Source: Promethearchaeota archaeon (GTDB lineage Archaea; Asgardarchaeota; Lokiarchaeia; Sigyniarchaeales; SOKP01). Taken from it: a stretch of DNA of 64,000 bases. A model generated the notes under the pieces. The model saw only the letters and a list, made by a program, of their open reading frames with translations, did no database searches and was not told the DNA's origin. Location: positions 1 to 64,000 of the forward strand of contig JAEOTP010000016.1 in NCBI GenBank assembly GCA_016839765.1. The letters run 5' to 3'. Of this stretch, positions 16,144 through 48,400 are shown one piece after another. The position numbers were made by a program, and so were the translations under genes. The number at the start of each line of letters is the position of its first letter. Position 1 is the first letter of the stretch.

Positions 16144-17440
16144 TTAAATCTTCGAGGCGATAAAATCTATGATATCAACAACTTTAATTTTTTCTTTAAC
16201 CATAGTATCCATTTCTTCATAAGCGTTGTTTAAGTTATTTATGCAAAATGGACAGCTAGTTGTTAAAATTTGAGCACTACTGTCAACTGCTTCTCTAATA
16301 CGTTCTTTAGAGATTTTAACCGCTAACTCTGGAAATTGGCTTTTTACCCCACCACCCGCGCCACAACACCAAGCATTATTTCTATTTCTCTTCATTTCTA
16401 TTAATTCAATTCCTGGAATATTAGTAATGACTTCACGAGGTATATCATAAAGATTCATGTGGCGACCTAAATGGCAAGGGTCGTGGTAAGTTACCTTTAC
16501 TTTTTCTCCTTCTTCCTTTTTAAAAGGAATTTGATTATTATTAAGCAATTCAATTATTATTTCTGTTATATGCTTTACTTCAAATGGTAATTTTTCACCT
16601 AATAATTCAGGATAATCTTTTTTCCACGTTCGATAACATCCTGCACAAGCGGTAAAGAGAGTCTTAGCACCCCTTTCCTTGAATTCTTCAATATTATGTT
16701 TAATCGTTTCAGTTAATGATTTTTCATCACCAATACGTATGGCAATTGAGCCACAACACCATTCATCTTTGGTCATTGCTATTTCTTTTCCTGCCGCTTT
16801 TAAAATTTTCATCATATTTTTTAATGTTTCTACCTGTCTTAAAGGTATACTACATCCCCCAAAAAACATTAGTTCTCCCTTTTCCTTAATTTCGGGAAAT
16901 TCTTTTATCCAATCGAATTTTTCATCTATATCCTCCCCATATGGATTTCTCATCTTATCATCGTTCATATATTCGACTAAATCACTATGTCTTTCAAGAG
17001 GAGCAAAACCAGCTTCAACCAAATCTTTTCTTAATGCATCCCAAACTTTAACATGATCAATCCAATTACACGTAGGGAGGGTAATATATTCATTTTGAGA
17101 CATATGACATACTTCAGTACAATTTCCACATACCGAGCATTGATATACCCATTCTGCAAGCTCTCTACTCAATGGGATTTGTCCTTCTAATATACTCTTG
17201 AGGACATTCATCCTCCCTCTTGAAAAATATAATTCAAATCCCTCATCTTCCATTGCCTCTTTAACGGGACATGTCAGATATCTCCCAACAACAGGTCGAA
17301 TGGCGTAACCACAATCTCCACAACCCAGGCAGGGTTTACGATCGATATCATAAACCTTTCTGCGATCATGGATAATTTCCAAAACCTATACAAGAGAATA
17401 TGGCTTTCCATTCCTTTTTTAGATGTTTTAATTCACTCAT
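16144..17440 (-). CDS. HdrD/GlpC-like Fe-S oxidoreductase (ferredoxin-like + two CCG domains); two exons: 17440-17388 and 17326-16144, 411 aa spliced
   Basis: Spliced N-terminus MSELKHLKKEWKAIFSCMGCGDCGYA...CP aligns with the paralog at 42171 (LKELEKEIYKCIHCKACRFA); WCCG, ACAGC, YHDPCHLGR, WCCGAGGG, TSCPFC. Confidence 0.88.
17327..17357 (-). other. mRNA BHB intron B (31 nt)
   Basis: AGGUUUAUGAUAUCGAUCGUAAACCCUGCCU; 9-bp outer helix UCCAUGAUC/GGUUGUGGA, central helix GCAG/CUGC, bulges AA^A and CU^G, 10-bp inner hairpin with AUCG loop. Confidence 0.85.
17358..17387 (-). other. mRNA BHB intron A (30 nt)
   Basis: AGGUUUUGGAAAUUAUCCAUGAUCGCAGAA; central helix UUGU/GCAG, bulges AU^A and AA^G, inner hairpin GGUU.UGGA/UCCA.GAUC. 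Confidence 0.8.
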
Positions 17441-19977: not shown

Positions 19978-20571
19978 TTGAAAAAGAGAATAAAGTATAC
20001 AATCATCTTAATAATTTTTTTGCTTCTAACAATTCCTATTTATTTTAATGTGTTTACAGATTTTTTTTTTATTAACGAATTTAATATAATTATATCTGTA
20101 ATTCTTGTAATAGGTTTTTTGACACTCTTTTTAATCGGAAAAGTCATTGAAGTTTATGGTTATAATGCAGAAATTATTAAAGTAATGGAAAAGCATGATA
20201 TCATAAATTCATTTGTTGAAGGTAATAATAAAATTATCAGATGGTTAGGATTTCTTGTAATTATAATAATTGAAGAATTAGTTTTTAGATATTATTTAGT
20301 TGGACTATTAAACATTCAATCATATTTAGGAGAAATGCTAATAATCCTAATCTCAAGTATAATCTTTTCAATCTTTCATATCCATACTTGGTTTTCTTAT
20401 AAAAATGTAAGAATTTTGACTATCTTTCTTATCTATTCATTTTTCTTAGGATTATTTAATGGATATCTTCTTCTAACTTTAGGAATAATCCCTTGTATTC
20501 TAGTTCATTATAGTCTAGCTTCTATTCTATATTATGGTATTTATAAACGTTATTTTAAAGTTAAAACATAA
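19978..20571 (+). CDS. CPBP/Abi-family intramembrane metalloprotease
   Basis: EELVFR, FSIFH, ILVH; several TM helices. Confidence 0.85.
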   Translation: MKKRIKYTIILIIFLLLTIPIYFNVFTDFFFINEFNIIISVILVIGFLTLFLIGKVIEVYGYNAEIIKVMEKHDIINSFVEGNNKIIRWLGFLVIIIIEELVFRYYLVGLLNIQSYLGEMLIILISSIIFSIFHIHTWFSYKNVRILTIFLIYSFFLGLFNGYLLLTLGIIPCILVHYSLASILYYGIYKRYFKVKT

Positions 20572-27801: not shown

Positions 27802-28329
27802 TTGGTAATTGTTAACATTATATGTCCGATATGTAAAAAGTGTAAGGGTATCAATATTCCCGAGTTCATAAATCCTCAAAAATCACATTTACTTACCATC
27901 TCAATACCAAAAGGAATGATTTGTGAACATCATTTTCAGGTATTTGTAGACAAAAACTATAACATTCGGGGATACCAAAAAGTAGACATCGAATTAAAAA
28001 ATAGTGTTATTAATAGAGATTTGGAGGACCATGACATATCAAAGCACTTCACAATTGAAGATAATCTTATTAAATTTGATCCAAAATCTATTAATTACAA
28101 CAAGGAAGACGCTTTAGAAATAGAAGATAAATTTGATAAGAATAAAGTGATGTCTCTAAAAGACATTTATAATGAATTTTGGGAATTTATTGATAATAAA
28201 AATTCCTTTTTCAGTGAGTTTATAAAACATGATAAAAGAAGAAAAATTTCAGACCTAGAAAATGAGAATTTGAATGTTAAGGATTTTATCTTGAGTCTCG
28301 AAAATGAAATCCAAAACAATAATCCCTAA
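27802..28329 (+). CDS. Hypothetical protein with N-terminal Zn-binding domain
   Basis: CPIC...ICEHHFQVFVDKNYNIRGYQKVD. Confidence 0.75.
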   Translation: MVIVNIICPICKKCKGINIPEFINPQKSHLLTISIPKGMICEHHFQVFVDKNYNIRGYQKVDIELKNSVINRDLEDHDISKHFTIEDNLIKFDPKSINYNKEDALEIEDKFDKNKVMSLKDIYNEFWEFIDNKNSFFSEFIKHDKRRKISDLENENLNVKDFILSLENEIQNNNP

Positions 28330-28527: not shown

Positions 28528-29682
28528 ATGAATATCGGTGGATTAATTAAAAAAGAGTTTGGAAGAATTAAATCTGATAAAAGAACTTTAATTTTATTAT
28601 TTGTTATTCCCGTTATTCTAATTATCATATTTGGTCTTACTACTGGAGTAGGGCCAACTAAATTTTTTACCGCAGCAATTATAACTCGGGATGAGATGCC
28701 TACTTATGATAATTTTCCCACAAATTCATCTCAATTTGACGATATATTTATATCAATTATGCAACATAATACAACCACTTGGGATCTTCATCAATTTTTT
28801 AATTGCACTAATTTAGAAGATTATGATAATGCTTTTGACAAATGTATTCAATTTATTAAAAACGATATTGTGGATGCGTTTATTGTGTTACCTGAAAATT
28901 TCTCTGAATCTGTGGAAAACAAAATAAATCCAGTAGTAATTTATTACATCGATGGTTCAGATATGACTGCTACTAGTTCAATTGAAGTAGCCATCCAAGA
29001 ACCAATTGCGCTATTTAGAGTGCAAGCTGATTTACTCGAAAATTTCACAATTATGGTTCCTTATTTAGAATTTGATGTTCCATTCTGGGAATCCCAATTA
29101 TTAAATTATGCTCTACCCATGATTCTTCCAATAATAATACTTGGTACTACAATGAATCTAACCTCTCTCTCTATTGTATCCGAAGGTCCCTTACCTAGGA
29201 TGCTGATTACTCCAACAACAAAGAGGGAAATTATTTTAAGCAAATTAATAGCAAATACAGCAATCATGATCCTCCAATCTACTGAAATTTTTATAATGTC
29301 AGCATTTTTCGGTCTTTATAGCCTTGGCTCCCTCTTCAATTTATATTTAGTTCTTATTATGATTGGTTTTTGTGGTATTTGCATGGGATTGTTTATATCT
29401 GCACTTAGCCCAACAGAACAAGGAGCAAATCAAATGTATCTCATAATGTTCATCGTTATAATTATGTTTTCCGGATCCTTTATACCACCAGAGCTAATTT
29501 CACCAGAGATGCAGTATGTTATTAATATACTTCCCTTAAGTCATGCTTTTCCTTTAGTAACGGACATAATATTAAAGGGTTTAGGGCTAAATTTAGAGCA
29601 TGTATTAGTTCTGAATCTCAATTCCGTAATTTTTGTACTTTTAGCTTATGTAATTTATCGATTTAAAAAGATTGAGGTGTAA
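28528..29682 (+). CDS. ABC-2 type exporter permease
   Basis: KKEFGRIKSDKRT.L, extracytoplasmic loop, EGPLPRMLITP, SGSFIP, LPLSH. Confidence 0.92.
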   Translation: MNIGGLIKKEFGRIKSDKRTLILLFVIPVILIIIFGLTTGVGPTKFFTAAIITRDEMPTYDNFPTNSSQFDDIFISIMQHNTTTWDLHQFFNCTNLEDYDNAFDKCIQFIKNDIVDAFIVLPENFSESVENKINPVVIYYIDGSDMTATSSIEVAIQEPIALFRVQADLLENFTIMVPYLEFDVPFWESQLLNYALPMILPIIILGTTMNLTSLSIVSEGPLPRMLITPTTKREIILSKLIANTAIMILQSTEIFIMSAFFGLYSLGSLFNLYLVLIMIGFCGICMGLFISALSPTEQGANQMYLIMFIVIIMFSGSFIPPELISPEMQYVINILPLSHAFPLVTDIILKGLGLNLEHVLVLNLNSVIFVLLAYVIYRFKKIEV

Positions 29683-30919
29683 GACAATAGGATCCAGAAG
29701 AAGAGCCAAAAAGTTAAGACCTACCACAACGAAAAAAAAAAGTATTAAATTACGAGGCTCTTTGTATAGAATTATTCGCCAAATTAAAAAGGAGTTTAAG
29801 CTTCTATGGACAGATAAATTCAATTTAATTCTTGCAATTATTATACCCCCTGTAGTTATCCTCCTCTTTGGGTCCATGTTAAATGCCATACCTCCAACAC
29901 CCCAGCCTGTTCCATGTGTGGTTATTTCTTATGATTCTAATACCATTATAAATCCAAATAACTATACAGAATCACGAATAAATAATTATACCATCCCCTA
30001 CGTGAACGCAGTAAATAAATCAGAATTATTAAAACTAGAGCATTTTTATAATGCAAGTGAGGAAATCTACGCTATGGAAACCGCAAGGATGCAATTAATC
30101 TCTGGAAAAATTAAGGTAATAATTTCAATCCCCACAGATTTTTCAGAGTTCATTATATGGGGGCTTCCAGCATTAATTGATTGTATTCCTGATTCTTCAG
30201 ATGTTCAACATATTCAAGATAATTTAAATGCGGTATATGATTCTGTGAAGATTTTTATAAATGAGAATAACTTAACTCCGCAATTTATAATCCAAGGTTA
30301 TGAAGAATTTGCAATACCAGAAGGATATAGTCTTAGATTTAATTATAATGCAACTTTATTACTTTCCTTTATAGCATTTGGCGTATCGATGGTTTTAACA
30401 ATTCTAGTTGTTGTTCAAGAAAAACCTGTAGCAAGATTATTACTTACTCCTGTAAAAAGAACTGAGATACTCCTTTCGAAATATTTTGCCTATATGCTTG
30501 TTTTAGTTCTCCAAATAATATTGTTAATTATTAGCACTATGGTATGTGGATTATATCTTGTAGGAAGTTTATTAAATTTCTTTTTAGCTCTTTATATAGT
30601 AGGATTTAGTGGTTTATCAATGGGATTGTTTATAAGTAGTATAAGTAAAACAAAAACAGAAGCAAATCAGTTATTTTTTGCTTTTATGATTGTTATTTTA
30701 TTACTTAGCGGGATTTTTATTCCTATTGATGCCATGCCGATATATCTACAAGTATTTGCTTACATACTACCTTTATCCCATGGAGATCCTATGATAAAAA
30801 GTGTAGTGACAAAGGGTAAATCTGTATTTGGATTTGATTTTTATGTACTTCTAGGCATAAGCTTCCTTTTTCTTATAATATCTTTTATAATATTTAAAAA
30901 AAGGAGATACGAGGTGTAA
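29672..30919 (+). CDS. ABC-2 type exporter permease (start possibly ATA at 29687)
   Basis: KKEFKLLWTDK, RLLLTPV.R.EILLSK, SGIFIP, LPLSH. Confidence 0.9.
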   Translation: MRCKTIGSRRRAKKLRPTTTKKKSIKLRGSLYRIIRQIKKEFKLLWTDKFNLILAIIIPPVVILLFGSMLNAIPPTPQPVPCVVISYDSNTIINPNNYTESRINNYTIPYVNAVNKSELLKLEHFYNASEEIYAMETARMQLISGKIKVIISIPTDFSEFIIWGLPALIDCIPDSSDVQHIQDNLNAVYDSVKIFINENNLTPQFIIQGYEEFAIPEGYSLRFNYNATLLLSFIAFGVSMVLTILVVVQEKPVARLLLTPVKRTEILLSKYFAYMLVLVLQIILLIISTMVCGLYLVGSLLNFFLALYIVGFSGLSMGLFISSISKTKTEANQLFFAFMIVILLLSGIFIPIDAMPIYLQVFAYILPLSHGDPMIKSVVTKGKSVFGFDFYVLLGISFLFLIISFIIFKKRRYEV

Positions 30920-30931
30920 GATATAAGCTCA

Positions 30932-31921
30932 TTGATTCCAAAAAGACCAATGGTTGAAGTTAATAATTTAAATGTAATTTTTGGTAAGGCACATATAGTT
31001 CATAATGTTTCGTTTACAGTAAATGAAGGCGAAGTTATAGGGTTATTCGGAATTTCGGGAGCAGGAAAAACAACAATTATAAGAGTTTTAACATGTCAAA
31101 TTGATAAAAAGAATTGGAATGGTAATGTACGGGTTACAGGTTTATCCCCAGCAAATAAAAAAAACCATCCCAAAATTCTTAGTAATATTGGCTATGTTCC
31201 TCAACTTGAACTATTAAATTTATATTTTGAATTAAGCCCCCTAGTGAATGTAGAAGTATTTACTTCTACTTATGGAATGTCAAAAAAACAAGCGCGAAGA
31301 ATAGCTAAAGAATTATTTGAAATCTTAGATATCCCAAAGGATACTTGGAAGAAACGAGTAAAACATATGAGTGGAGGAGAAAAGAAAAGACTATCTATGG
31401 CTATTGGTTTAATTCATAATCCAAATGTTTTATTTCTTGACGAACCCACTACTGGCGTTGATGCCTCTAAACGCTACGATATTCTTAGCTATTTGAAGAA
31501 GCTTAACAAGAAATTAAAAACCACGATGTTTATAATCACACATGACTTAGAAGCCGCATTAATATGTGATAAAACTGCAATATTGCGAGAAGGCAAATTA
31601 TTAGAGTTTGAAACACCCCAAAAATTAATTTTATCTTTACCAAGTGAGGGTTTAGTTGCAAGATTTACAGTTGAAAATTTAAATGAAGAATTAATTGATA
31701 TGATAAAAAAGTTTGAACCGATAAGAAAAGTATTACGAGTAGGAAATGAGGTTATTGAGATTTTGATGGACGATTTTGAACAAAATTTACCAAATCTTAT
31801 ACAATTCTTAATTAATAAAGGTATCAAAATTAAATCAATGAGTAGGGATATAGCCAGTTTTAGGAGGTTCTTTCAAATTAGGATTCAAGAAGAAGAGGAA
31901 AAAGAAAAAACTTTAAATTAA
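30932..31921 (+). CDS. ABC transporter ATP-binding subunit
   Basis: GISGAGKT, MSGGE, LFLDEPT, ITH. Confidence 0.95.
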   Translation: MIPKRPMVEVNNLNVIFGKAHIVHNVSFTVNEGEVIGLFGISGAGKTTIIRVLTCQIDKKNWNGNVRVTGLSPANKKNHPKILSNIGYVPQLELLNLYFELSPLVNVEVFTSTYGMSKKQARRIAKELFEILDIPKDTWKKRVKHMSGGEKKRLSMAIGLIHNPNVLFLDEPTTGVDASKRYDILSYLKKLNKKLKTTMFIITHDLEAALICDKTAILREGKLLEFETPQKLILSLPSEGLVARFTVENLNEELIDMIKKFEPIRKVLRVGNEVIEILMDDFEQNLPNLIQFLINKGIKIKSMSRDIASFRRFFQIRIQEEEEKEKTLN

Positions 31922-31937
31922 AAAAAAGAGGTGTTGA

Positions 31938-34900
31938 TTGATTATAAAACTGAGCCGAACGGGTAAAAGAAGACTAAAAAATTTTGTTCTCTTACTTCTT
32001 CTTATTGGAACTCCAATCTTCACCTTCATTCTTGTAAACACTCGCTTTATTTCATATATTGATGAAGAAAGTGTGGAATATGTCAAAAGAAATGCTGCCT
32101 TATTTACAAAGTCCCATCAAAATGATGACGGATTATTTTTAGAACCAGACTTAGATACTAATTTTAGAGCCATTGATTCTATTAATTTCACCCATGTGAA
32201 TAATACAGATTCTCGTTTAATAAATCCCAACAATTTAAGAAATGATTTAATTAAAAAACTGGCCCCAAATTTCTTTTTCGACTACATATTTGAAAAACAA
32301 AATATTAATGGAGCCTATTCAGATATAGGTGGTTTAGGGAATATGATTTCTACCTATGAAGCAATAAAAACAATTGAGGTGGCAAATAAATCTTACCTTA
32401 ATCGTAAAATAATGGAAAATAAAACAATCGAAATTATTAATTATCTAAATGATTCATTGAATGGAAATGGGTTGGGATTTAAGGTTGCTCCCCTTTTGAA
32501 TTATTCGGACATCATCTCAACATCTTATGCAATTGAATTAGCCCAAATTCTTTCGGGAGCTTCGATATTAAATAATAAAAATATAAGTAAATATATAAAT
32601 TCTACATGGGTAATAACAGGGGGGTATGCTTTGACTAATTTCTCCTTAATTCCTACTCCTGAAACCACTTTTCATGGAATTCGAGCATATATTGGCATGA
32701 ATATGACTTATGATAATGCGAGTGAATTTGCTATTTCATCCTATATTAACTCATCATATAATATGGATGGGGGTTTTAGAAATAGTCTTGGGCTGATTTC
32801 TGACATTGAATCAACATATTACTGTTTAGCATCTTTAGATTTATTAAATTTACCTATAATTAATGAAAATACTACTCTTAATTTCATTTTAAATTGCAGT
32901 AATCCAGACGGAGGTTTTAGTCAGCATCCAGTTTTTACAACACCATCAGACTTTAATTATGGTTGGGCTGCAATGAAAGCCTTATCAATTTTAGAAAAAT
33001 TATATAACTTTACACCCAGTATTGAAAATAGAATAAATGAAATAAAACTTAATTATTATAACTGGTTGCATGATCACCAAGCAATAAATTCTTTATTTGG
33101 TCATATCACTTTAGAATATAATTATTTTGGAGTTTTAGCATTAAGAAATTATAGTCCTGAAAATCTATATGAATGGATTAATACCACACAGACCGATAAT
33201 ATATTAGCTTATGTTTATAATTGTTATAATATAGAGGATGGTGGCTTTGGTTCAAGACCGGATTTAAATTCTACTCTTTTTTCAACGTATTGTGCCCTGA
33301 ATTTAATCAACTTTATTGAACCGTATGAGTTAAATCAATTTCACGAGCAAAATAAATCAAAAACCATACACTATTTAGTAGGTCTCCAAAATCCTGATGG
33401 AGGTTTTAGAGTCGGAAATGATATTGATTTTTTACTTTCCTTATTCGGCCCGTATTATAACTATTTCCTAAATTTAATCAATACAAATGTTTCTATGGTG
33501 GAAAGTACGTATTGGGCATTAATTTCGCTTGACATACTTCAAAGTAGTCATTTAATTGATCGAAATAACCTTTCACATTGGATAAAATCATGTCAAAATC
33601 CAGACGGAGGTTTTTCAATTTTTATTGGATTTCATAGTGATATAATCTCTACATATTTTGGTCTTGAAATATTTAACCAATTTTTTTCTTCTGAACCAAT
33701 GGCCAAGATTGCTGTAATTGAATTCTTAAAACTTGCGCAAATGTCTGATGGAAGTTTTTCAATATTACCCGCTATAGGTCAATTCATAGAATTACCATCA
33801 ACATTTTTAGTTACATATTTAGCGTCTAAGGCTCTCTACGATTACCGTTTTCAACCAGAAGATATTCAAGGAGCATTAAATTGGTATAGAGAATGCATAA
33901 GTGAAACAACTGGGGGTTTTGGAGATAACCCGGGTTTTGGAGGAGATTTAAGAAATGCCGCTTATGGAATAGTTATAATTGATGAACTAAAACATGATCA
34001 GGCTTTTGATTCTAAACCATGGAATGATTTGTTATTTTATATTCTTATTGTTGAGCTTATAGGTTTCGGATTATTTATCTTATTGAAGTTATATCAGAGG
34101 CTTTCTATTCCACAGAGGATAAAATTATTATTTGGAATAGGAGAAAAGTTAACTCCGTCATACCTGCAACAATTTCCTGCTATAAACTGCGAAAATTTTA
34201 GTGTATATGCTGGTGGGACATTGATAGTTGATTCAGTATCAATGAGTATATCGCATGGTAAAATTCTTGGCATTCTAGGAGAAAGTGGAGCTGGGAAGTC
34301 AACATTTATAAAGGGTTTACTAGGTATGAGAAAAACCACAGGATTTTGCCAAATTTATGGAATGAACATGAGTAAGAGAACATCAAAAAGAATACGACCC
34401 ATTTATGGTTATGTACCTCAAGATTTGGGAAAACTTTATCATAATTTCACCACTTTAGAAAATTTATTATATTTTGGGAATCAATATGGATTGACTGAAA
34501 AAGAGATAATAAGTAAATCTAAAAGGATACTGAGAAGCTTAGATATTGAAGACAAGATGCAAGAATTAGTAAAAAATTTATCTGGGGGCGAAAAAAGGCG
34601 AGTTAGTATTGCTATTGGTTTGACACATTCCCCAATTTTTCTTATTTTAGATGAACCAACTTCTGGATTAGATCCAATAATAAGGGAGAGTTTATGGCTA
34701 ACACTTACAAAAATTAATGAGCAATTTAAAACCACACTAATAGTTATCACACATTATCCAGAAGAATCGCGTTTTTGTAATGATGTAGCAATTTTCGGGA
34801 GAAAACGGGGCATGATTGATTTTGGAAAGCCAAAAGAACTGCTAGATCAATTACCAGGGAAAGGACGCTCAGTGGAGCTACAGTTTTATAAGCCTATTGA

Positions 34901-35129
34901 AAATGCCATAGAATCGCTTGAATCTATTGAAGGCATCGAAAAGGTTTTAGAAAATAAGGTTGGAACAAATTTTTCAATCTTTACCAACTTAAATGTAAAT
35001 GAATTATTTAATAAAATAGAAAATGTAATTGGTAACGATTCTGTTCAATTATTAAAACAAATAGATTCAAAGATGGAACAATTCTTTAGATATAAAGCTA
35101 TGGAGGTGCCTAAAATTGAAAAGCTTTAA
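31938..35129 (+). CDS. Fusion: TM - prenyltransferase/squalene-cyclase-type repeats - TM - ABC ATPase
   Basis: Repeated Q/N-x-DGGF...S.I.STY.(A/G)L motifs; TM near aa 700-720; GESGAGKS, LSGGE, ILDEPT, ITH. Confidence 0.88.
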   Translation: MIIKLSRTGKRRLKNFVLLLLLIGTPIFTFILVNTRFISYIDEESVEYVKRNAALFTKSHQNDDGLFLEPDLDTNFRAIDSINFTHVNNTDSRLINPNNLRNDLIKKLAPNFFFDYIFEKQNINGAYSDIGGLGNMISTYEAIKTIEVANKSYLNRKIMENKTIEIINYLNDSLNGNGLGFKVAPLLNYSDIISTSYAIELAQILSGASILNNKNISKYINSTWVITGGYALTNFSLIPTPETTFHGIRAYIGMNMTYDNASEFAISSYINSSYNMDGGFRNSLGLISDIESTYYCLASLDLLNLPIINENTTLNFILNCSNPDGGFSQHPVFTTPSDFNYGWAAMKALSILEKLYNFTPSIENRINEIKLNYYNWLHDHQAINSLFGHITLEYNYFGVLALRNYSPENLYEWINTTQTDNILAYVYNCYNIEDGGFGSRPDLNSTLFSTYCALNLINFIEPYELNQFHEQNKSKTIHYLVGLQNPDGGFRVGNDIDFLLSLFGPYYNYFLNLINTNVSMVESTYWALISLDILQSSHLIDRNNLSHWIKSCQNPDGGFSIFIGFHSDIISTYFGLEIFNQFFSSEPMAKIAVIEFLKLAQMSDGSFSILPAIGQFIELPSTFLVTYLASKALYDYRFQPEDIQGALNWYRECISETTGGFGDNPGFGGDLRNAAYGIVIIDELKHDQAFDSKPWNDLLFYILIVELIGFGLFILLKLYQRLSIPQRIKLLFGIGEKLTPSYLQQFPAINCENFSVYAGGTLIVDSVSMSISHGKILGILGESGAGKSTFIKGLLGMRKTTGFCQIYGMNMSKRTSKRIRPIYGYVPQDLGKLYHNFTTLENLLYFGNQYGLTEKEIISKSKRILRSLDIEDKMQELVKNLSGGEKRRVSIAIGLTHSPIFLILDEPTSGLDPIIRESLWLTLTKINEQFKTTLIVITHYPEESRFCNDVAIFGRKRGMIDFGKPKELLDQLPGKGRSVELQFYKPIENAIESLESIEGIEKVLENKVGTNFSIFTNLNVNELFNKIENVIGNDSVQLLKQIDSKMEQFFRYKAMEVPKIEKL

Positions 35130-36819
35130 AATGAGCGAACTAGAGCGCCTTAGACTAAAAACTTTAGACGCTATACGCTTTTCTAAACGATTTTGGATGA
35201 CATATAGGGAAAATACTTTTGGAATTGCCTCTATTATAAATTTAGTTTATAAAAAGTCTTTTTTTGAAGTTTTATTCTTTACAAATAAAGATGTTCTAGA
35301 GAAGGGAGTCCCTTTATTAAAAATTTATACTCCTATCGAAGAGCAAATAGATTTTGATGAAATCATAGTAGAACCTGATTTTGATGATGATGGACTTGTT
35401 AGTCCGGTGAAAATCATCGGTCGAATGAGAAAGCTTATAAGAAGAGAGTTTCAGAAACATTTAGCATTCTTGGATAAAGAAATAGAACTTCTTGATGAAA
35501 TATATGAAAATTTCCCCATAGATAATATTCCTTACCATAGAGAAATAGGCATTTATTTCCCTGATTTTGTAGTAAAGCTTAACATAAATTTTGAAAAATT
35601 TCCATCTATTCCTTCCTTTTCTTTTTCAAAAACTCTTTCAAGAATTGTAAGTGAAAGAGAATTTAACGAATCTGCTATTATCACAGACTGGAATGAATTA
35701 AACCCACCTCATATATATGAGTTAGTAGAAAAATTAACTCAAATTGTAACCGATCGTTTAAAAGTAGAACCTATAAAATTTAATTCTCAACACCTTGTGG
35801 TTGATAATTTTTCAATAGGGGGTAATATAAAAGACATCTCATTTAAGATCCATAGAGGTAAATCAATAGGGATTGTTTATGATAAAGAATTGTTCGAGAA
35901 TGCGGAGCATAGTTTGACATTATTAAAACTTTTTGAGGCTATATCAGGTGAACATCCTAATTTTTCAGGCAGAATTGAGATCTTTGGTAGATATGTTCAA
36001 TTATTACCCGCATATGATATGGAGAGAATTTTTATCTTACCCCAAGCTTATGAGTCAAAATTAACTAAAATGAAGCTTAAAAAAGCAGTTCAATATAGTA
36101 TAGATATTAAGGGTATCCTTAAAGAAAGAAAAGTTGCTTTGGATAAGGTTTTAAAAAATGCAGGATTAACTTCTAAAATGGGAGATATCGTGAATGATCT
36201 TCTTACAGAAGCACCTCTTTTACAATTTACTCGGAGGAAAGAATTTATTAAAAATGCTTTAACAGCCACGGGTTTGTGGAATAAAAAGAAAAAAAGATTT
36301 TCTCAATTAACACCTTTAGAATTTTTACTATTTTCAATTGGAAGAGCATTGCTTCAATCACCTATAATTGTAATGTTTTCAATACCTTTTGGATTACTTA
36401 ATAGAATAGACTTTGAGAAATTCAACAAATATATGAATCGCATAAAAGAAGTATTCCATATAATACTTATTTTTCATGGCCCAGAAGGAATTGCTTCAAA
36501 ATGTGATCAAATTCTAACTGTTTCTCAAAGTGTATCTAAAATAGGAACCCATGAGGACTACATCAATGCACTACCATATGCGGGTGAATATATTACAGTT
36601 GAATTCAATAATGCAGATGAGAATTTAATTAAGAAAATAAATGAATTCGAAGAAGTTAATAGAATAATTGAAGAAAGGAAAAATGAAAAATATAAGATAT
36701 ACATAAAAGAAAATCCAGATAAATTAATAATAAATTTAACAGAATTGTTTGGAGCAAATCTTTTTAGCTTCAAAATTTCAAAAGCATCAATAGGTGATTA
36801 TTTAGAATTTAACCAATAA
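35116..36819 (+). CDS. Degenerate ABC ATPase with putative UBC/UEV-like N-terminal domain
   Basis: ISFKIHRGKSIGIV and IGRALLQSP are ABC-like, but Walker A, LSGGQ and Walker B acids are absent; N-terminal LNINFEKFPSIP...WNELNPPHIYELV. Confidence 0.6.
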   Translation: MKSFKMSELERLRLKTLDAIRFSKRFWMTYRENTFGIASIINLVYKKSFFEVLFFTNKDVLEKGVPLLKIYTPIEEQIDFDEIIVEPDFDDDGLVSPVKIIGRMRKLIRREFQKHLAFLDKEIELLDEIYENFPIDNIPYHREIGIYFPDFVVKLNINFEKFPSIPSFSFSKTLSRIVSEREFNESAIITDWNELNPPHIYELVEKLTQIVTDRLKVEPIKFNSQHLVVDNFSIGGNIKDISFKIHRGKSIGIVYDKELFENAEHSLTLLKLFEAISGEHPNFSGRIEIFGRYVQLLPAYDMERIFILPQAYESKLTKMKLKKAVQYSIDIKGILKERKVALDKVLKNAGLTSKMGDIVNDLLTEAPLLQFTRRKEFIKNALTATGLWNKKKKRFSQLTPLEFLLFSIGRALLQSPIIVMFSIPFGLLNRIDFEKFNKYMNRIKEVFHIILIFHGPEGIASKCDQILTVSQSVSKIGTHEDYINALPYAGEYITVEFNNADENLIKKINEFEEVNRIIEERKNEKYKIYIKENPDKLIINLTELFGANLFSFKISKASIGDYLEFNQ

Positions 36820-36835
36820 ATTATGAGGTAATTGT

Positions 36836-37639
36836 ATGTTTAAGAGTCTTTATATTATGGATGAAAATGGAATTGTTTTATATTCTAAAAATTTTATGAG
36901 AGAGAAGTATGATGATAATATTTTAGTAGGATTTTTCGCATCAATCGCTAATTTTAGCAGGGAAGCATTAGGAAGTGTAATTAAAAACGTTGATTTAGGA
37001 CAAAATAATAAGCTTATCTTACTTCCCATCTCAGAAGAAAATCTACTAGGAGCTGTAATTGTTAGTTCAAATGATAATAACCAGTTAATTTTAACTATTT
37101 TAAGAGATATTTTACAAGATTTTATTGATACTTTCGCTCCAGATTTCGATCCTGAAAAAATTTTTGAGGAGGAAATGGAAAAAATAATCCAAAATAATAT
37201 GAAAGGTAAAATAATGCAATCACCAAAAATTAGATTTTTACTTGCTTGGTTAATTGCGGCACCATTATCGTATCTACTTATTTTTTTAAGTATTTTCGCT
37301 ACGGATTTTCTTTATTCTATTTTTCGGCTGAACCAATATTTAAATCCTGCCCAAATTTTAACTCGCTTTACGCCATCCTTAATTTTATTATCAACAGTAA
37401 ATATAGTCATACTATTTCTGCTTCCAAACTTAATCCTTGGGTATCTTTCTCCCAATTGGAAAATCGCTACAGTAAATTCTTTTATACATTTGGCGGTTAC
37501 AATAACGTTATATTTCTTTTCTATAGAACCTAACTTTGCATACATAATTGTAGGATACCTCCCCTTAGCGTTAATTTTTTCATTGTTCTTCCTTTTCATC
37601 GGTATTCGTTATTCTTCAAAAAAATTCTTAAAAAAATAA
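36836..37639 (+). CDS. Longin-like domain fused to about 4 TM helices
   Basis: LYIMDENGIVLYS...DNILVGFFASIANFSRE, an Asgard longin-like pattern; hydrophobic C-terminal half. Confidence 0.7.
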   Translation: MFKSLYIMDENGIVLYSKNFMREKYDDNILVGFFASIANFSREALGSVIKNVDLGQNNKLILLPISEENLLGAVIVSSNDNNQLILTILRDILQDFIDTFAPDFDPEKIFEEEMEKIIQNNMKGKIMQSPKIRFLLAWLIAAPLSYLLIFLSIFATDFLYSIFRLNQYLNPAQILTRFTPSLILLSTVNIVILFLLPNLILGYLSPNWKIATVNSFIHLAVTITLYFFSIEPNFAYIIVGYLPLALIFSLFFLFIGIRYSSKKFLKK

Positions 37640-37804: not shown

Positions 37805-40054
37805 TTGAGCAATAAAAATCTTAAGTTGGACTTTAATGTCGGAAATTATAAGTCTATTTTTAATACTATACCTACTCCCACTTATATCTGGAAAGTAGAT
37901 AATGATGATTTCAAATTAATTGATTGTAATAAAGCAGCAGAAATTATTACTGAAGGAAAAATTTTAGATTATTTAGGTTTAAGTTTAATAGACATATATG
38001 ATGAAGATTCTGAAGTCTCTAAGGATCTAAAAAAGTGTTTTTATGAAAAAATTAATTTTTCAAAAGAAATGCTTTATAAATATAAGAGTACTGGTAAACA
38101 GAAGGTTCTTTATACAACCTATAACTTTATACCACCGAATCTTGTTATTGTCTTTACAGAAGATATCAGTAAACAAAAAGAAGCAGAAAGTTTATTGAAA
38201 AAGACTGAAGGCGAAAAATCTATAATATTAGAAAGCATTTCAGAGCATATTGTTTATCAAGATTTAAATAATAGAATTATCTGGACAAATAAAGCCGCAG
38301 CAGATTCAGTTGGTTTAACTAGCGATCAATTAATTGGAAAAAAATGTCATAAGATTTGGAATAACCGTGATGATAAATGTCCTGGTTGTCCAGTTATTTC
38401 TGCAGTTGAAACTTGTAAACCGACTATGGCAGAAATGACTACTCCAGATGGCAGAGTATGGTTAGTTAAAGGATTTCCCGTTTTTGATGAAAAAGGAAAT
38501 GTTATAGCCGCTGTTGAAATCACTAATGAAATTACAAAGATTAAACAGGCTGAAGAAAAATTAAAAGTTTCAGAACTACAATATCGTAATACAATTGATT
38601 CAATGGGCGATGCTATACACGTCATTGATAAAGATTTAAGACTTATTCTTATTAATCCAGCAATTATAAGATGGCTTGAGGTTTTAGGTTTACAAACCGA
38701 TGTTATAGGTAAAAAACTAAATGAGGCCTTTCCTTTTTTACCTGAAAAAGTTCTTGATGAATACAAACAGGTATTAGATTCTGGAGAAACCCTTATTACG
38801 GACGAGGAGACTTTTATTAAGGGAAAAACTTACTGTACTGAATCTCGAAAGATTCCAATAATTAGTAAGGGAAAGATAAATCAAATTGTAACTATTGTCC
38901 GTGATTTTGGTGAAAGGAAAATCTCTGAGCAAAAATTAAAAGCATCAGAAAAAAAGTTTCGTCACCTTTTTGACACTTCTCCTTATGGCATAGTATTGTT
39001 AGATCTTAAAGGCGATATAATCGATTGTAACACATCTACAAATAGGTTTTTATCAAAACATACGATAGATGATTTGATTGGTAGAAATTTTAGAGAAATT
39101 TGGTTCATTCATGAAAAAAACAAAAATTTAATATCTTTTTTCGAAAACATAATTGAAAGAGTAATAAATGGTGAAAAGATTAAAAATTTGGAATTCCCTA
39201 TAAATAGATCACTTGGAGGTATAATTTGGGTAAATAGTAGTATATCATTGACAAAGTTAGGAGACGAATCATTAATACAATTCATATTAGAGGATATTTC
39301 AGATAAAAAAAAAGCTGCAACCGAGTTAAAAGAATCAGAAAAAAGATATCGTGAAGCTTTTAATCGTTCTAATTTTTATAAGGATCTTTTCGCTCATGAT
39401 ATAAATAATATTTTTCAAAATATTCAATCATCCTCTGAATTACTCTCTTTATTATTAGATGAAATGAATATTACTAAAGGAAATAATTTTGTAGATATTA
39501 TTAAAGATCAAATTATTAGAGGCTCAACTTTAATTTCAAATGTAAGGAAACTTTCAGAAATTGAAGAAATTGAATCTCCATTGAAAAAAGTTGAATTATT
39601 TGGAGTTCTTAATGAAGTTAAGAATTATATCATTAAATCCTTTCAAAATAGAAAGATTAATCTTGAAATTCTCTCTGATGAAAAGCAAATATTTGTTAAT
39701 GCAAATGAGATATTACCAGATGTATTTGAAAATATTTTAATTAATGCTATAAGATATAACCAAAACTCTTTAATAGAATTAATGATAAGGGTGTCTAAAG
39801 ACATTTCTGATGGAAAAAATTTCATTCGAATGGAATTTATCGACAACGGTATCGGCATTCCAAATGAAATGAAAGAAAAAGTTTTTCAGAGAGGTTATAA
39901 TCACAGGGGTATTATTAAGGGCTTGGGGCTGGGATTAACACTTGTAAAGAAAGTAATTGGAATTTACAATGGACAAATTTGGGTCGAAGATAAAGTTATT
40001 GGTGATTACACTCAAGGAAGTAAATTTATATTATTAATCCCAGAGGTGGAGTAA
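37805..40054 (+). CDS. Soluble multi-PAS sensor histidine kinase
   Basis: About 4 PAS/PAC repeats, FAHDINN H-box, NILINAIRY, DNGIGI, GLGLGL. Confidence 0.93.
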   Translation: MSNKNLKLDFNVGNYKSIFNTIPTPTYIWKVDNDDFKLIDCNKAAEIITEGKILDYLGLSLIDIYDEDSEVSKDLKKCFYEKINFSKEMLYKYKSTGKQKVLYTTYNFIPPNLVIVFTEDISKQKEAESLLKKTEGEKSIILESISEHIVYQDLNNRIIWTNKAAADSVGLTSDQLIGKKCHKIWNNRDDKCPGCPVISAVETCKPTMAEMTTPDGRVWLVKGFPVFDEKGNVIAAVEITNEITKIKQAEEKLKVSELQYRNTIDSMGDAIHVIDKDLRLILINPAIIRWLEVLGLQTDVIGKKLNEAFPFLPEKVLDEYKQVLDSGETLITDEETFIKGKTYCTESRKIPIISKGKINQIVTIVRDFGERKISEQKLKASEKKFRHLFDTSPYGIVLLDLKGDIIDCNTSTNRFLSKHTIDDLIGRNFREIWFIHEKNKNLISFFENIIERVINGEKIKNLEFPINRSLGGIIWVNSSISLTKLGDESLIQFILEDISDKKKAATELKESEKRYREAFNRSNFYKDLFAHDINNIFQNIQSSSELLSLLLDEMNITKGNNFVDIIKDQIIRGSTLISNVRKLSEIEEIESPLKKVELFGVLNEVKNYIIKSFQNRKINLEILSDEKQIFVNANEILPDVFENILINAIRYNQNSLIELMIRVSKDISDGKNFIRMEFIDNGIGIPNEMKEKVFQRGYNHRGIIKGLGLGLTLVKKVIGIYNGQIWVEDKVIGDYTQGSKFILLIPEVE

Positions 40055-40055
40055 T

Positions 40056-40436
40056 TTGACTTCAATTTTGATTGTAGAGGATGACATATACCTGCAAAAA
40101 TTATATGAAATGATGTTAAAAACCCAAGGATTTAAGATAATTGGCAAAGCAGGGAATGGCTCTGAAGCAATTAATATTTTTAAGGCTCTACGAAATAAAC
40201 CTGACATTGTTTTGATGGATCACAGAATGCCCATTAAAAATGGAATCGATACTACTCTCGAACTTACTAGATTAAATTCTCATACTAAAATTATATTTAT
40301 TAGCGCAGATAATTCCGTGAAAAAACAGGCGCTCTCAATTGGAGCAAAGAGTTTTATTGAAAAACCGTTCAGTATTGATCAACTAAATAATGTAATTAAG
40401 AAAGTTATAGAAAACTCTAAAGTTGTGAATAATTAA
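40056..40436 (+). CDS. Single-domain response regulator
   Basis: IVEDD, MDHRMP, ISA, EKPF. Confidence 0.93.
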   Translation: MTSILIVEDDIYLQKLYEMMLKTQGFKIIGKAGNGSEAINIFKALRNKPDIVLMDHRMPIKNGIDTTLELTRLNSHTKIIFISADNSVKKQALSIGAKSFIEKPFSIDQLNNVIKKVIENSKVVNN

Positions 40437-43802: not shown

Positions 43803-45311
43803 ATGAAAAAGAAAAAAGCAATTGCGATTATTGCTGCTTTAGTTATTGTAGCGGGAGTAACTACTACGTTACTGCTGGTATTTCTATTTCCCAGTCCAGG
43901 AGTATATACAGGTCAAAGGAAAGCATTAATCTGCTGTAGTGCAAATGATTTTTTTGGTTCAGAACCTGAGGAACCATTTAATGATGGACATGATTCTAAT
44001 TTAAATAACATTATTAAAGATGAAGGGAATTGGTCATTTACTAATATAGAAAATTGTTTAGGACAACATACTATGCTTGAAGCTTATGAAGGGCCTCTAA
44101 ATGGCAGTTTGCTTATGAAAGCTATTATAGATGGACCATTCTCAGGGATTTTTTCTCTTAATTGGACACAATCTGGTTATACTCTTTATGAATATGCTTA
44201 TTATAATATTTCAGCCATGATTAAAATTATAGATACAGGAGGATTAATAGGTAAGGGGGCTCGAATTGGATTACAATGGCTGGATTCCGATGGAGATGTA
44301 ACTAGAACTGACTGGTCAAATTATATTAATAATACAAATTCAGAATGGGCATTTTTAAATTCTACAGGAGTTTGCAATAATGAAACAGGAAAAGAAATAA
44401 CGGAATTAAAACTTGTGTTATGTGTAAATTTCACATTATCTATTGCTTTAACAGATTATATTTTCTTTGATTACATCAAAATAGATAAGTGGGTTTTAGT
44501 AGATTTAGACAATCCTACTGATCCTGGTACTCCTCCTCCGCCTCCAGGCATAAATTCAGATGGATTCCCTGCTCAGGCATTACAAGTATATTGGATATTG
44601 AAAAATCATGGTTATACAGATGAAAATATCTTTTTGATGTTATATTATAAGGATGATGCAGATGGAATTATTGATATTAAGTTAGGTGGTAAACCAGATG
44701 ATTTAGTTGGTGCAGTTATTGATTTAGCTAATAACAGTGTAAATGCTACAAGTTTCAAACAAGAGTTAAATGTTTCTTATGCAGGTTCTTTTGCTTCCAC
44801 CATACAACCACAAGATTATCTAATTATATATATGTGTGATCATGGTTCAAATAAAATACCTGGTCAAGCTCCCAATGCTACATTCCATTTTGAAGCGGAT
44901 AATAGTTTTATTACAGAATTAGAATTTTATAATTTAGTTAAGCAAATAAATTGTCAGAGAATAATGATAAATGTAGATTGCTGTTTTAGTGGTAATTTTC
45001 TAAATCAAAATATTGTTGGTCAGAGCTGGTATGATATTGAAAATTGTATCATGGTTAGCGCTTCTTCGAATTTACTTGCTTGGTATTATATAAATAATAA
45101 AAATCTTGATGGATTTGCAGGTTCCTGGTTCTTTCATATGTTTTGGGATGCGTTAAATCAGTCTGCGACTATTTACGATGCTTTTAATCATGCCAATATC
45201 TGGCCTCCAGCTGCTCGTGGAATGCCATTATTTTTGATTCAGAATCCAATGTGGGATGATAATATGGGTATTAATAAAACATTAAGCTTCGATAGCGATC
45301 CTCCATTATAG
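43803..45311 (+). CDS. Membrane-anchored clan CD (C13 legumain/caspase-fold) peptidase with inserted beta-domain
   Basis: N-terminal signal anchor; GYTDENIFLML, IIYMCDHG (His), INVDCCFSG (Cys); many N-x-S/T sequons. Confidence 0.8.
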   Translation: MKKKKAIAIIAALVIVAGVTTTLLLVFLFPSPGVYTGQRKALICCSANDFFGSEPEEPFNDGHDSNLNNIIKDEGNWSFTNIENCLGQHTMLEAYEGPLNGSLLMKAIIDGPFSGIFSLNWTQSGYTLYEYAYYNISAMIKIIDTGGLIGKGARIGLQWLDSDGDVTRTDWSNYINNTNSEWAFLNSTGVCNNETGKEITELKLVLCVNFTLSIALTDYIFFDYIKIDKWVLVDLDNPTDPGTPPPPPGINSDGFPAQALQVYWILKNHGYTDENIFLMLYYKDDADGIIDIKLGGKPDDLVGAVIDLANNSVNATSFKQELNVSYAGSFASTIQPQDYLIIYMCDHGSNKIPGQAPNATFHFEADNSFITELEFYNLVKQINCQRIMINVDCCFSGNFLNQNIVGQSWYDIENCIMVSASSNLLAWYYINNKNLDGFAGSWFFHMFWDALNQSATIYDAFNHANIWPPAARGMPLFLIQNPMWDDNMGINKTLSFDSDPPL

Positions 45312-45452
45312 AGAACTGTATATTTAATTTTTATTTTTTTTATCTTTTAGTCTATTTATTAATCATTTTTTGCTACAATTTAGTTCTATCAATGACAAAA
45401 AATAAATGTAAAAATTATCATTATAATTAAAAGGATTTATGGGGTTTTTTAT

Positions 45453-48400
45453 TTGTCAAACGTAGAAAAGAAAACTGCGTATCCGTATATTACGGAATTC
45501 AAAAGAGAACCTTTTGAATCGTTTGTACTAATAGATAGGAAAAAAATTGGGAGTTTCCATCTAAGTTATTATAATAAAATCATAAATCTTTATCAATCAA
45601 AAGTTAAAACGCTATTTAAAGAGCCTAGTTTAGACTTAGAGTATTTATATTGGTTTCTCTTATTAGGGAAATATCTGAAAGAGGATCTCACTACTCAAAA
45701 ACATGAGTTTTATGCTTTCATTAAAAATTGTGAAGTGGATATTTTAGAGAAGCATCAAATAAGTTTTAAATTAAATCCTCAATCTAAAGCTGTACCTGAT
45801 ATTTGGTCTTTATATTATGCCCTATCTAGTTTGCATATATTAGGATTGCTAGAAGAATATCTTCTCTCAAAAGGAAGTAATGATCTTGTAAGAAAAGTTA
45901 AAAATTTTATATATGAACATAAAAAAGGTGAAATTTTTCTCCACTGTCTTGATAAACAATGTGATATTCATAAAAAACCATTTTCTTCAAAGACTTTTTA
46001 TTATATCCTTGAAATTCTCACACTTATAGGTTCAGATGTTAGAGTATTTAAAGAACAATTCCGTATATATTTGAATAGCAGAAAAAAAATTCCTTCCATG
46101 CTATTCAAATATCTATCTCTTAAGTATTTAAATCTGGATTTAGAAGTAAAAGATAAAGAGCTTCAATATTTCCATCAATTTCAAAAATATGATGGTGGAT
46201 TTAACTTCTCTAACGGAGAAGGAAATATAGATGATACTTTTTGGATAATTTATACTTTTGATCATTTTTCATGGCTAATGGATTACAACCCTGCCAGAAT
46301 CTATTCATTCATCAACGAAAATATTCAAACACTTTTTGAAAGTAGTAATGAACAAGCTTCACTCATATTCCTTAATTTGTCCAAGGTCACAATACTTTTA
46401 TCTTTTATATGGAAAAAGTTTATTGGAGAGATTGAAAGGCTGATTTTTAAAGAAATAGAAAAAAATGGATTCGTAGATATTAAACACATAAAAACAGCTT
46501 TTGGATTAACCCATGGAATTGAAGAGATCATCCTATATATTAATTTAAGTTATAATTTTAAGCTAAAAATCATAAGTAATACATTAGAATTTAATAATTT
46601 TCTTATAACCCTCAATGATGGATTAAAAGTAATTGCGAATGAAATATGTAATCAGTTAAAGGAAAATAGCATAATATCTCTTTCTGACATTCTAAAGAAT
46701 TATAAATCATCTTATCATTTTGAATCATTGAAAATGAAAGAGGATATTATTCCTCTAATTAATGATATGATGGAAAAGAATTTTTTCAAGGGAAATATTC
46801 GAACTAAATCAAAATTTCTAGGAAAATCAAAATATTACTTTTACTTGGATTTTCTTCTAGATGATGTTATAACTTCTGACATGAAAATAAATACAGAGAA
46901 GGTATTAGAAGAAAAAGAAAAATTGGGTGATATTAAGAATGATATCTATAATATGACTTTAATTTTAAAAAATACCTCCACACAGATTAAAGAAGAAATT
47001 GAATCCTATTTACTTCTAGACGAAATCGACTATGCAAAAGAACGATTGAGATTTATTTTGAGAAATGCATTATTGGAAGCTGATTTTCTAAATGAAAATA
47101 TTGAAAATTCATTTAGTCAAGATATGAGATATATCAATATTCAAGCAGTATTAGCAACTGAAATTAATCAATGGAAAAAAGCATACTCTATAATGCAGAA
47201 GAAGCTAAATGCAGTTGAGAAATATTTAAAAGAAAAAATTTCCGAAAAAGAAGAATTAAAAAAATTTAATGTTATTTTAGATGAATTAAATAATAGAATT
47301 TTTGAAATTGGGGAATTTATTAAAAAAGAATTAGATTCATTTAGAAAATATTTTAGAGAGAAGCTTGAATCTGGTTTTATTAACGATAAATATAATTTAA
47401 TAATTGGTGAATTTAATAAAATCTCGAATTATGTAGAGAAGTATGATCATACAATTTATAAAATATCACAACAAATTACGATAAAAGAAGAGAAAGTTTT
47501 CAAGAAACATAAGGGAATTATCGATAATTGGGTTAACTTAAAAGAAGAATTTGAGTCGATCTTCAATTATTATGCTGAAGGATTTAAATTTTTCGAGCAA
47601 ACAATTGAAAAAATTGATGGAATTAATGATGAAACTGAAAAAGAAATATCTTATATAAAACAAAAAGCAGATGAAAAAATTTCTCAGAATCAATTCAAAG
47701 AAGCTTTTGAGATTATAAAAAAGGATTCTGAAAGCTTATTAAATCAAAAAATAAAGGAAATAAAGGATCTCAAAATAATTGTCTTAAATCAAATTAAAGC
47801 TAATCAAAAACTATTCCTTCTTTTTCAATATTTAAAAGAAAAATTGGATGTAATAGAAGAATCAATTATAAATTTGGTAGCAGAACAAGTTCAATCGCTA
47901 AAGGATGAAGTATTGGAAGAGAGAAATAGGGCTAAAATTGAAGATTTTGATAATTTTATATCTGAACAAATTCAGAGATTCAAGATTAGATTAAAATTTT
48001 ACAAAACTAAACTAAGTGAAGCAAAAAGTATAAAAATCAAGGATGTAATTGATGGCTTTGACAGAATAATCATAGAATTAGATGATAAGTATAAAATCTT
48101 CTTGAAAAAATTAAATAATTTAAAAACAATAATACAAAATTTTGATCAAAATTCGATTACAGTTATCCAATGGGAAAATTTTTATGATTATCTAACAACT
48201 GAGATTAATAATTTGAAAGAGAATCATGTTAATCAAATTATCATTAGTGAAATAGAGATCTGGTCTAAAGAGAAAAAAACTAATAAAGTAGATATAACAG
48301 AGCTTGCAAATAAATTAAATTTAAAATGCAAATCAGTAATACCTCTCATTAAAGAAATGATAGAATTCTCTAAAATTGAGGGTGATTTAAATGAAGAAAA

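Follow-up and report, generated by a model that had tools for sequence, protein, structure and literature searches.

Positions 28528-37639 of contig JAEOTP010000016.1 from a Lokiarchaeia genome, analysed within a 64-kb window (the whole stretch, positions 1 to 64,000), hold six same-strand open reading frames (ORFs), genes A-F, which may encode a heteromeric type V ATP-binding cassette (ABC) exporter of lipid that has an acceptor domain on the outside and an adaptor module in the cytoplasm. We put the probability of this reading at about 0.5. Two different permeases (A and B) and two different active ATPases (C and D) would make up a complete transporter, and the remaining genes encode a dead ATPase with probable tandem E2/RWD folds (E) and a longin domain joined to membrane helices (F). 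The individual folds are all known, and the core is that of a type V transporter; no description of the combination was found in the searchable literature. The genes and their domains are listed below, with lengths in amino acids (aa).

28528..29682 (+), gene A: type V (ABC-2) permease, 384 aa, PF12698 (ABC2_membrane_3), E = 2.8e-27
29687..30919 (+), gene B: second type V permease, paralogue of A, PF12698, E = 2.9e-27; open from TTG 29672, Shine-Dalgarno at 29674-29679, likely ATA start at 29687
30923..31921 (+), gene C: soluble ABC ATPase, PF00005 (ABC_tran), E = 1e-25; alternative start at TTG 30932
31938..35129 (+), gene D: 1063 aa, Prenyltrans plus ABC_tran
31980..32036 (+), first membrane anchor of D, residues 15-33, from hydropathy
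32055..34022 (+), ectodomain of D, residues 40-695, PF00432
34029..34085 (+), second membrane helix of D, residues 698-716, from hydropathy, followed by a basic stretch
34170..35129 (+), cytoplasmic ABC ATPase of D, PF00005
35116..36819 (+), gene E: 567 aa, no Pfam family
35116..35778 (+), N-terminal tandem E2/UBC-RWD-like domains of E, 216 residues, model pLDDT 93
35788..36819 (+), dead ABC ATPase and conserved C-terminal domain of E, ~340 residues, from alignment
36836..37639 (+), gene F: no Pfam family
36836..37210 (+), longin domain of F, residues 1-125, from fold search
37223..37639 (+), four-helix membrane domain of F, model helices 130-162, 179-204, 208-227 and 232-263, plus hydropathy

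Conservation and gene order of the operon

The six ORFs (28528-29682, 29672-30919, 30932-31921, 31938-35129, 35116-36819 and 36836-37639, all on the + strand) are spaced by -11 to +16 nucleotides (nt), which agrees with the tightly coupled unit claimed in a preliminary description made from the sequence alone. All six genes are intact, with ratios of nonsynonymous to synonymous substitution rates (dN/dS) of 0.05-0.19 against close relatives, and purifying selection acts on them.

A total of 56 loci were fetched around D or E homologues; they come from kindred genomes picked via D or E, and the counts are descriptive, not statistical. The order A-B-C-D-E-F was found in 39 of the 56, and in most of the others a contig end or an insertion between B and C breaks the series. 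The same order holds in three further families, and it is also seen around E homologues that share as little as 22-28% identity. Synteny of E and F with the ABC core is thus retained, and the shared order upholds the earlier proposal of one conserved Asgard unit.

The homologues carry the labels Promethearchaeota/Lokiarchaeia. The operon family was not found outside the class Lokiarchaeia, and the N-terminus of E was detected in 0 of the 223 genomes of other Asgard classes searched. Within the class, the D barrel is present in 79 of 151 genomes, and an F orthologue accompanies it in about 72 of them. Closed genomes of the sister family yielded no copy of the operon, a gap that may explain why it has gone undescribed. 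The block is also missing from several near-complete genomes, suggesting that it is dispensable and is gained or lost as a unit.

One family has a compact C-D-A-B unit, with E divergently oriented and F elsewhere, indicating that A-D are the core; another keeps D-E without F. In one genus (loci L057 12186-13568 and L062 6477-7943), genes for a membrane protein and a small longin-looking protein lie between D and E on the opposite strand. The closed genome G045 has the C-terminal half of E and the whole of F side by side, without A-D (L037 7311-8947). An apparent D-E fusion (1505 aa, L077) was traced to a 100-N assembly gap.

Two permeases and two catalytically complete ATPases

A and B exceed the Pfam cut-offs for type V permeases (PF12698, E about 3e-27 each), confirming the two ABC-2 permeases called earlier. 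A consists of a first transmembrane (TM) helix, an extracellular domain with six N-x-S/T sequons and then five TM helices, and has a dN/dS of 0.05. Its residues 3-371 align to the TM domain of insect ABCH (PDB 8YZP/9JU6; E = 1e-14), which B also matches (E = 3e-7). ABCH is the sole significant solved relative of the two permeases, at low identity, and as such supports the earlier placement of the system among exporters of the lipid-handling ABC-2 group.

The ATPase of gene C is canonical, as first described, with a PF00005 match and intact Walker A, Q-loop, signature, Walker B, D-loop and H-loop motifs, followed by a C-terminal domain of ~85 aa; its best NCBIfam model, drrA, scores under the cut-off. 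All catalytic motifs are likewise intact in the ATPase of D and conserved in 55 homologues (dN/dS 0.08). The ATPase of E was called degenerate, and the alignment agrees: Walker A, the signature and the Walker B acidic pair are lost in all homologues, despite which dN/dS is 0.13-0.19. It scores higher with the D profile than with the C profile in 21/21 sequences. In the ATPase-domain tree, each of C, D and E makes a single class-wide lineage, and we regard E as an accessory, decayed D-type copy.

The catalytically complete ATPase domains of the operon are thus two, C and D. A sister locus in two other, distant families has C-type and D-type ATPases around a permease and a subtilase (tree support 100/99 and 100/96), suggesting that the C-D pair is older than the present operon. 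C and D probably pair in one motor, and A-B-C-D would then be a complete transporter made from two different permeases and two different active ATPases. Three nucleotide-binding subunits for one permease pair had been considered unusual. Three are indeed present, but only two can hydrolyse ATP, which is the normal number, and the oddity is mostly removed if two permeases and two active ATPases make one transporter.

The sister locus (L039 2274-10491, L040 1324-9764) encodes the C-type ATPase, a 1300-aa subtilase with site-1-protease-like domains and one type V permease; its D-type ATPase is fused to winged-helix repeats (weak UFL1/PCI/EAP30 matches).

The double barrel of gene D

Both domain matches (PF00432, E = 3e-37; PF00005, E = 2e-25) bear out the fusion of a repeat barrel to an ATPase in D. 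The ectodomain comprises 12 PFTB repeats that form two alpha/alpha barrels of six repeats each, and the two halves align at 25% (E = 9e-10), so they are related by duplication. RabGGT beta is the closest profile (E = 6e-27). The ectodomain has 21 sequons, and the density across 55 homologues is 2.3 per 100 aa versus 1.1 in the cytoplasmic part. Lying between two membrane helices and rich in sequons, the barrel faces outward. A stand-alone, 1010-aa membrane-anchored protein with prenyltransferase-like repeats is encoded in DNA inserted after gene B of genome G019 (L091 6263-9295).

Probable tandem E2/RWD folds of gene E and the longin domain of gene F

The domain calls for the last two genes hold structurally, with an E2/RWD fold in E and a longin fold in F. 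Residues 104-212 of E have a UBC fold (Z 10.1 to Ubc8, root-mean-square deviation (rmsd) 3.3 Å over 99 residues; Z 9.3 to the VPS37A UEV), and the best 50 matches of the fold search were nearly all E2, UEV or RWD. The N-terminus as a whole matched the double RWD of FANCL and Knl1 at Z 8.1 over 162-169 residues. Foldseek placed FANCL, Knl1 and Ctf19-Mcm21 on top, with modest E values (1e-3 to 1e-2) and rmsd of 7-10 Å. In the ESM Atlas, the E N-terminus found nothing above 0.76, and PDB sequence searches with the E and F profiles returned noise only (calmodulin, Rpb8, LuxR).

The preliminary description suggested that regulation may involve ubiquitin-fold recognition, a label that does not fit E. 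The domain, probably a tandem E2/UBC-RWD fold, is devoid of the catalytic cysteine (columns 174-197 contain no Cys in 74 sequences), and no evidence connects it with ubiquitin: there is no ubiquitin-system gene among the conserved neighbours of the operon loci and no RING or ESCRT (endosomal sorting complex) gene nearby. Other Loki proteins carry the domain too, in up to four copies, suggesting a common Loki interaction module that is not in itself a sign of ubiquitin. Binding of ubiquitin by E is very unlikely. Other Loki proteins with two to four copies of the RWD-like domain are encoded at L174 3956-5611, L179 and L189, and a conserved gene pair at L175-L177 encodes two longin-looking proteins, one of which ends in this domain. 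An apparent longin-RWD fusion elsewhere in Loki genomes has an N-terminus that matches the F longin at only 12% probability.

F fits the longin-TM protein described earlier, with four membrane helices behind a longin domain that matches AP-3 mu (Z 13.5), VAMP7 (13.3) and Sec22 (13.0), at rmsd 2.9-3.2 Å over about 120 residues; roadblock scored lower (Z about 10). Foldseek matched AP-2 sigma (E = 5e-5). In two other families, genes for Rag-like (PF04670, E = 8e-22) and Rab-like (PF00071, E = 2e-48) GTPases are found at a distance of one or two genes from paralogues of F. These neighbours may hint, at the family level only, at a GTPase link, and it is rather doubtful that F acts through a small GTPase. 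Prediction of an E-F complex gave a score of 0.01, which we count neither for nor against. The F paralogues (longin plus four TM helices) have as neighbours either a Rag-like GTPase and an arrestin-like gene or, in back-to-back orientation, a Rab-like GTPase (L180 2849-7030, L182, L183, L185 3714-5360).

Proposed mechanism and alternatives

In the favoured mechanism, A and B would form the membrane channel, and C with the ATPase domain of D a two-ATPase motor. The membrane helix of D would hold the glycosylated double barrel outside, by the exit between the permease extracellular domains, where it would serve as a non-catalytic acceptor or carrier of a hydrophobic cargo, most likely an isoprenoid lipid. 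E, a dead D-type duplicate, would dock on the motor or replace the D ATPase to switch it off, its tandem E2/RWD folds offering a protein-binding platform, and F, an adaptor anchored in the membrane and bearing the longin, would position or regulate the pump. Regulation of the same complex by E is an even bet. The cargo is predicted, and export of lipid stands slightly below even; the acceptor role of the barrel is more tentative still.

Several observations weigh against this exporter. The substrates of type V permeases also include peptides, drugs and glycans, and A and B are distant from ABCH in sequence. No lipid-synthesis gene is a conserved neighbour, and F is non-adjacent to the operon in two families. 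There is no small GTPase gene within 75 kb from the contig start, which covers the window; the small-GTPase link proposed at first is not supported for the operon itself, and only paralogues of F elsewhere adjoin GTPases. PFTB ectodomains also occur on other Loki surface proteins, such as the 1010-aa one of L091, so the fold need not mean isoprenoid binding.

A bolder form of the lipid exporter would be wired into Asgard membrane trafficking: the F longin would recruit a small GTPase, the double RWD of E would bind an adaptor or a ubiquitin-like tag, and the dead ATPase would be an exchangeable regulatory subunit. We consider this unlikely. If true, lipid extrusion would be switched on at chosen membrane sites, an arrangement that to our knowledge is not known in any ABC system.

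Also unlikely is a receptor and signal relay, in which the D barrel would sense an outside ligand or surface, A-B-C-D would convert this into an ATP-driven shape change and E and F would signal to small GTPases. Such a shape change would resemble that of the mechanotransducers of the FtsEX and BceAB types. D is laid out like a receptor (ectodomain, helix, cytoplasmic enzyme), F paralogues adjoin GTPase genes, and the sister locus encodes a subtilase laid out like site-1 protease and a D-type ATPase fused to winged-helix repeats, all of which would fit. However, the permeases are full type V domains whose large extracellular domains are most like those of a true exporter, and the operon has no GTPase or conserved response gene, the histidine kinase after F being present only in part of one genus.

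Alternatively, the barrel might act outside the cell as an enzyme on the exported substrate, either as an unusual terpene cyclase or by transferring prenyl groups. By sequence it is related to prenyltransferase beta subunits and to class II cyclases, and its last repeat carries an invariant polar patch, G-D-x-P-x-F-G-x-D-L-R-N (Asp663, Asp670, Arg672 in 41/42, and Asn673), which by the repeat pattern would sit where RabGGT beta holds a zinc-binding histidine. Against this, the D-x-C motif of the zinc triad was found in 0 of 42 homologues, with Ser/Asn at the His position, and DxDD in 3 of 42, at no conserved place; there is no alpha-subunit gene, and prenyl diphosphates are cytoplasmic. An enzyme is improbable, and the barrel more likely binds than catalyses.

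Just as improbable is a pump for a peptide, glycoprotein or glycan of the cell surface, with the barrel as a generic glycosylated scaffold. The best NCBIfam models include SagH, NodJ, DrrB, GldA and PmtC, all under cut-off, and the PFTB ectodomains of other Loki surface proteins would suit a scaffold, but the conserved neighbours in the ~56 loci include no gene for a precursor peptide, a glycosyltransferase or a surface protein. That E and F are a separate module merely sharing a transcript with an ordinary four-gene exporter is highly improbable: E is divergent in one family, F is non-adjacent in two and L037 keeps only the C-terminal half of E with F, but E adjoins C or D in every core-bearing family, descends from the D ATPase and overlaps the D stop codon with its own Shine-Dalgarno.

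Relation to known systems

No paper describing the operon was found, as the earlier term 'undescribed' implied, and the six-part combination was not found in the searchable literature. A 2026 structural survey of Asgard proteins leaves ABC, RWD, longin and UBC unmentioned in its main text.

Insect ABCH (Tribolium ABCH-9C; PDB 8YZP, 8Z01, 9JU6) is an exporter of ceramide and hydrocarbon (PMC12578276). ABCH and ABCA/ABCG share with the operon a type V membrane domain with a large extracellular domain, ATPases with an extra C-terminal domain and two catalytic ATPase domains per channel. ABCH, however, is a homodimer of fused ATPase-permease halves, whereas the operon has four chains, separate in all loci, one ATPase with its own membrane anchors and ectodomain, and two extra genes. 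The likeness to ABCH and ABCA is at most one of function. In DrrAB, NodIJ, RbbA/YbhFSR, SagGHI and PmtCD, separate ATPase and PF12698/PF01061 permease genes lie in one operon, but their models score under cut-offs, and no barrel-fused ATPase, pseudo-ATPase or longin is known in any of them. YbhSR and SagHI have two different permeases, as here.

RabGGT beta (PDB 1DCE/6O60) and class II terpene cyclases have the PFTB barrel with six repeats per barrel, whereas the D barrel is doubled, extracellular and membrane-tethered, and lacks the zinc triad, DxDD and an alpha subunit. E resembles the double RWD of FANCL, Knl1, Ctf19-Mcm21 and BRE and the UEVs of TSG101 and VPS37A in its probable tandem cysteine-less E2 fold, Y/F-P-x-x-P turn and conserved Trp before the last helix; Asgard UEV-Vps23 (PMC9192718, 10.1101/2023.07.25.550441) is grouped with these. 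In contrast to all of them, the E domains are fused to a dead ABC ATPase, with no RING, ESCRT or ubiquitin gene nearby. F has the full longin fold (Z 13) of AP-complex mu/sigma, VAMP7, Sec22, TRAPP longins and Asgard roadblock-longin proteins, but its longin is joined directly to four membrane helices, has no SNARE motif and belongs to a Loki paralogue family.

Longin and E2-like domains of Asgard archaea tend to be listed as stand-alone 'eukaryotic signature' genes without a known client. Here a class-wide operon structure ties both to a machine that can be assayed (ATP hydrolysis, lipid movement), allowing a direct test of the role of such modules in archaea. A stand-alone pseudo-ATPase subunit and an ATPase with a receptor-like ectodomain would be new to ABC transporter biology.

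Translation signals and non-standard start codons

The motif GAGGT(G), which pairs with the genome's own 16S rRNA tail GATCACCTCC (contig C56), lies just 5' of the starts of B, C, D, E and F. The ribosome-binding sites reported at first therefore stand for these five genes and fail for A, which has no GAGGT(G) Shine-Dalgarno upstream of its start; A is probably the first gene of the operon. In relatives, the motif forms the closing two codons (Glu-Val) of A and B and is conserved. The pentamer alone is frequent (n = 35 on the same strand across the 64 kb), so the weight rests on position and conservation, not on the motif. Sigma-70 promoter and terminator scans, whose models are unsuited to archaea, gave chance-level matches only.

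B and C have no ATG, GTG or TTG at Shine-Dalgarno distance and likely start at ATA 29687 and ATA 30923, respectively; a 93%-identical relative has ATG at the C start position corresponding to ATA 30923. In relatives, 13 of 45 copies of B and 14 of 47 copies of C have nothing but ATA, ATT or ATC at the start site. Probable starts of this kind, behind a conserved Shine-Dalgarno inside the last two codons of the upstream gene, are seen at many related loci. Gene callers would misplace them.

Probable introns in gene C of relatives

31452..31453 (+), empty intron site in gene C of the window, inside the Thr174 codon past the Walker B glutamate; no insert in this copy

Ten of 47 related gene C copies have a 31-34-nt insert at the codon after the Walker B 'DEPT' motif (L045 6681-6712, L046, L050, L056, L058, L068, L069, L073, L075 and L086). 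All ten form a bulge-helix-bulge (BHB) with two 3-nt bulges, a 4-bp helix and flanking helices; the central pairs are 4/4 in eight inserts and 3/4 in two, and the exon helix is 3/3 in all. There are three unrelated insert sequences, with compensating base changes. Excision by the standard rule restores the frame in 10/10, and shuffled controls gave P of 0.0001-0.004 for each insert. The inserts are thus probably archaeal tRNA-type BHB mRNA introns. Their presence ruled out frameshifting or slippage behind the split gene C, and a single clade of intron-bearing alleles was also ruled out, as the tree needs 8-9 changes and shows no clustering.

B and C are separated by at least 1 kb, or other genes lie upstream, in 7 of 10 intron-bearing loci (one cut by a contig end) versus 1 of 38 intronless loci. 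Allele divergence steps at the intron, from 20% (5') to 4% (3') between the window and G019 and from 4% to 20% between G146 and G072, and intronless allele pairs show no step at this site. Three intron-bearing loci have the same double CxxC..HH..CxxCH (HNH-pattern) protein upstream of C (49-62% identity, no Pfam match), which was found in no intronless locus fetched; its family is multicopy in these genomes. The protein has a winged-helix tail (L093 57-1967, L075 10560-12830, L046 5169-5987). In intron-bearing C with the HNH gene, the 5' half looks foreign up to the intron, and old gene-start stubs remain behind B in L046 and L056.

An integrase-driven island was not supported: five genomes have only a single chromosomal Xer-type recombinase, none near the locus. 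Possibly, cleavage of the empty site by a free-standing nuclease leads to transfer of the nuclease itself along with the first exon and the protective intron, as in the collaborative homing by free-standing endonucleases described for phages (PMC2988022), which shares the co-converted flank and the nearby HNH-type gene. The cbf5 pre-mRNA intron of Crenarchaeota (PMC2738675) is likewise a patchily present BHB insert in a coding sequence at a conserved catalytic motif. The gene C intron differs from these in lying in another gene and phylum and in being too small to encode a nuclease. It would add another tRNA-type mRNA intron in Asgard genes, with a possible spreading route. The only strict BHB match in the 64 kb (17327-17357, - strand) breaks the CxxC motif of an Fe-S gene ending at 16144, suggesting that this genome too has coding-region inserts.

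Neighbouring genes

27802..28329 (+), candidate seventh member: 175-aa CxxC...CxHH protein, no Pfam family

This protein is encoded directly ahead of A or behind F in about 29 loci and has five paralogues in this genome; it is possibly a seventh component. An Rce1-like CAAX prenyl endopeptidase family gene (19978-20571), 8 kb upstream, is not a conserved neighbour and is probably unrelated to the operon. A PAS histidine kinase and a response regulator (37805-40436) come right after F and follow the operon in only part of the genus. Further downstream, 43803-49859 encodes a membrane-anchored legumain-like peptidase (PF01650, - strand) and a surface-type protein of 1468 aa with a weak PCI/winged-helix domain at its end.

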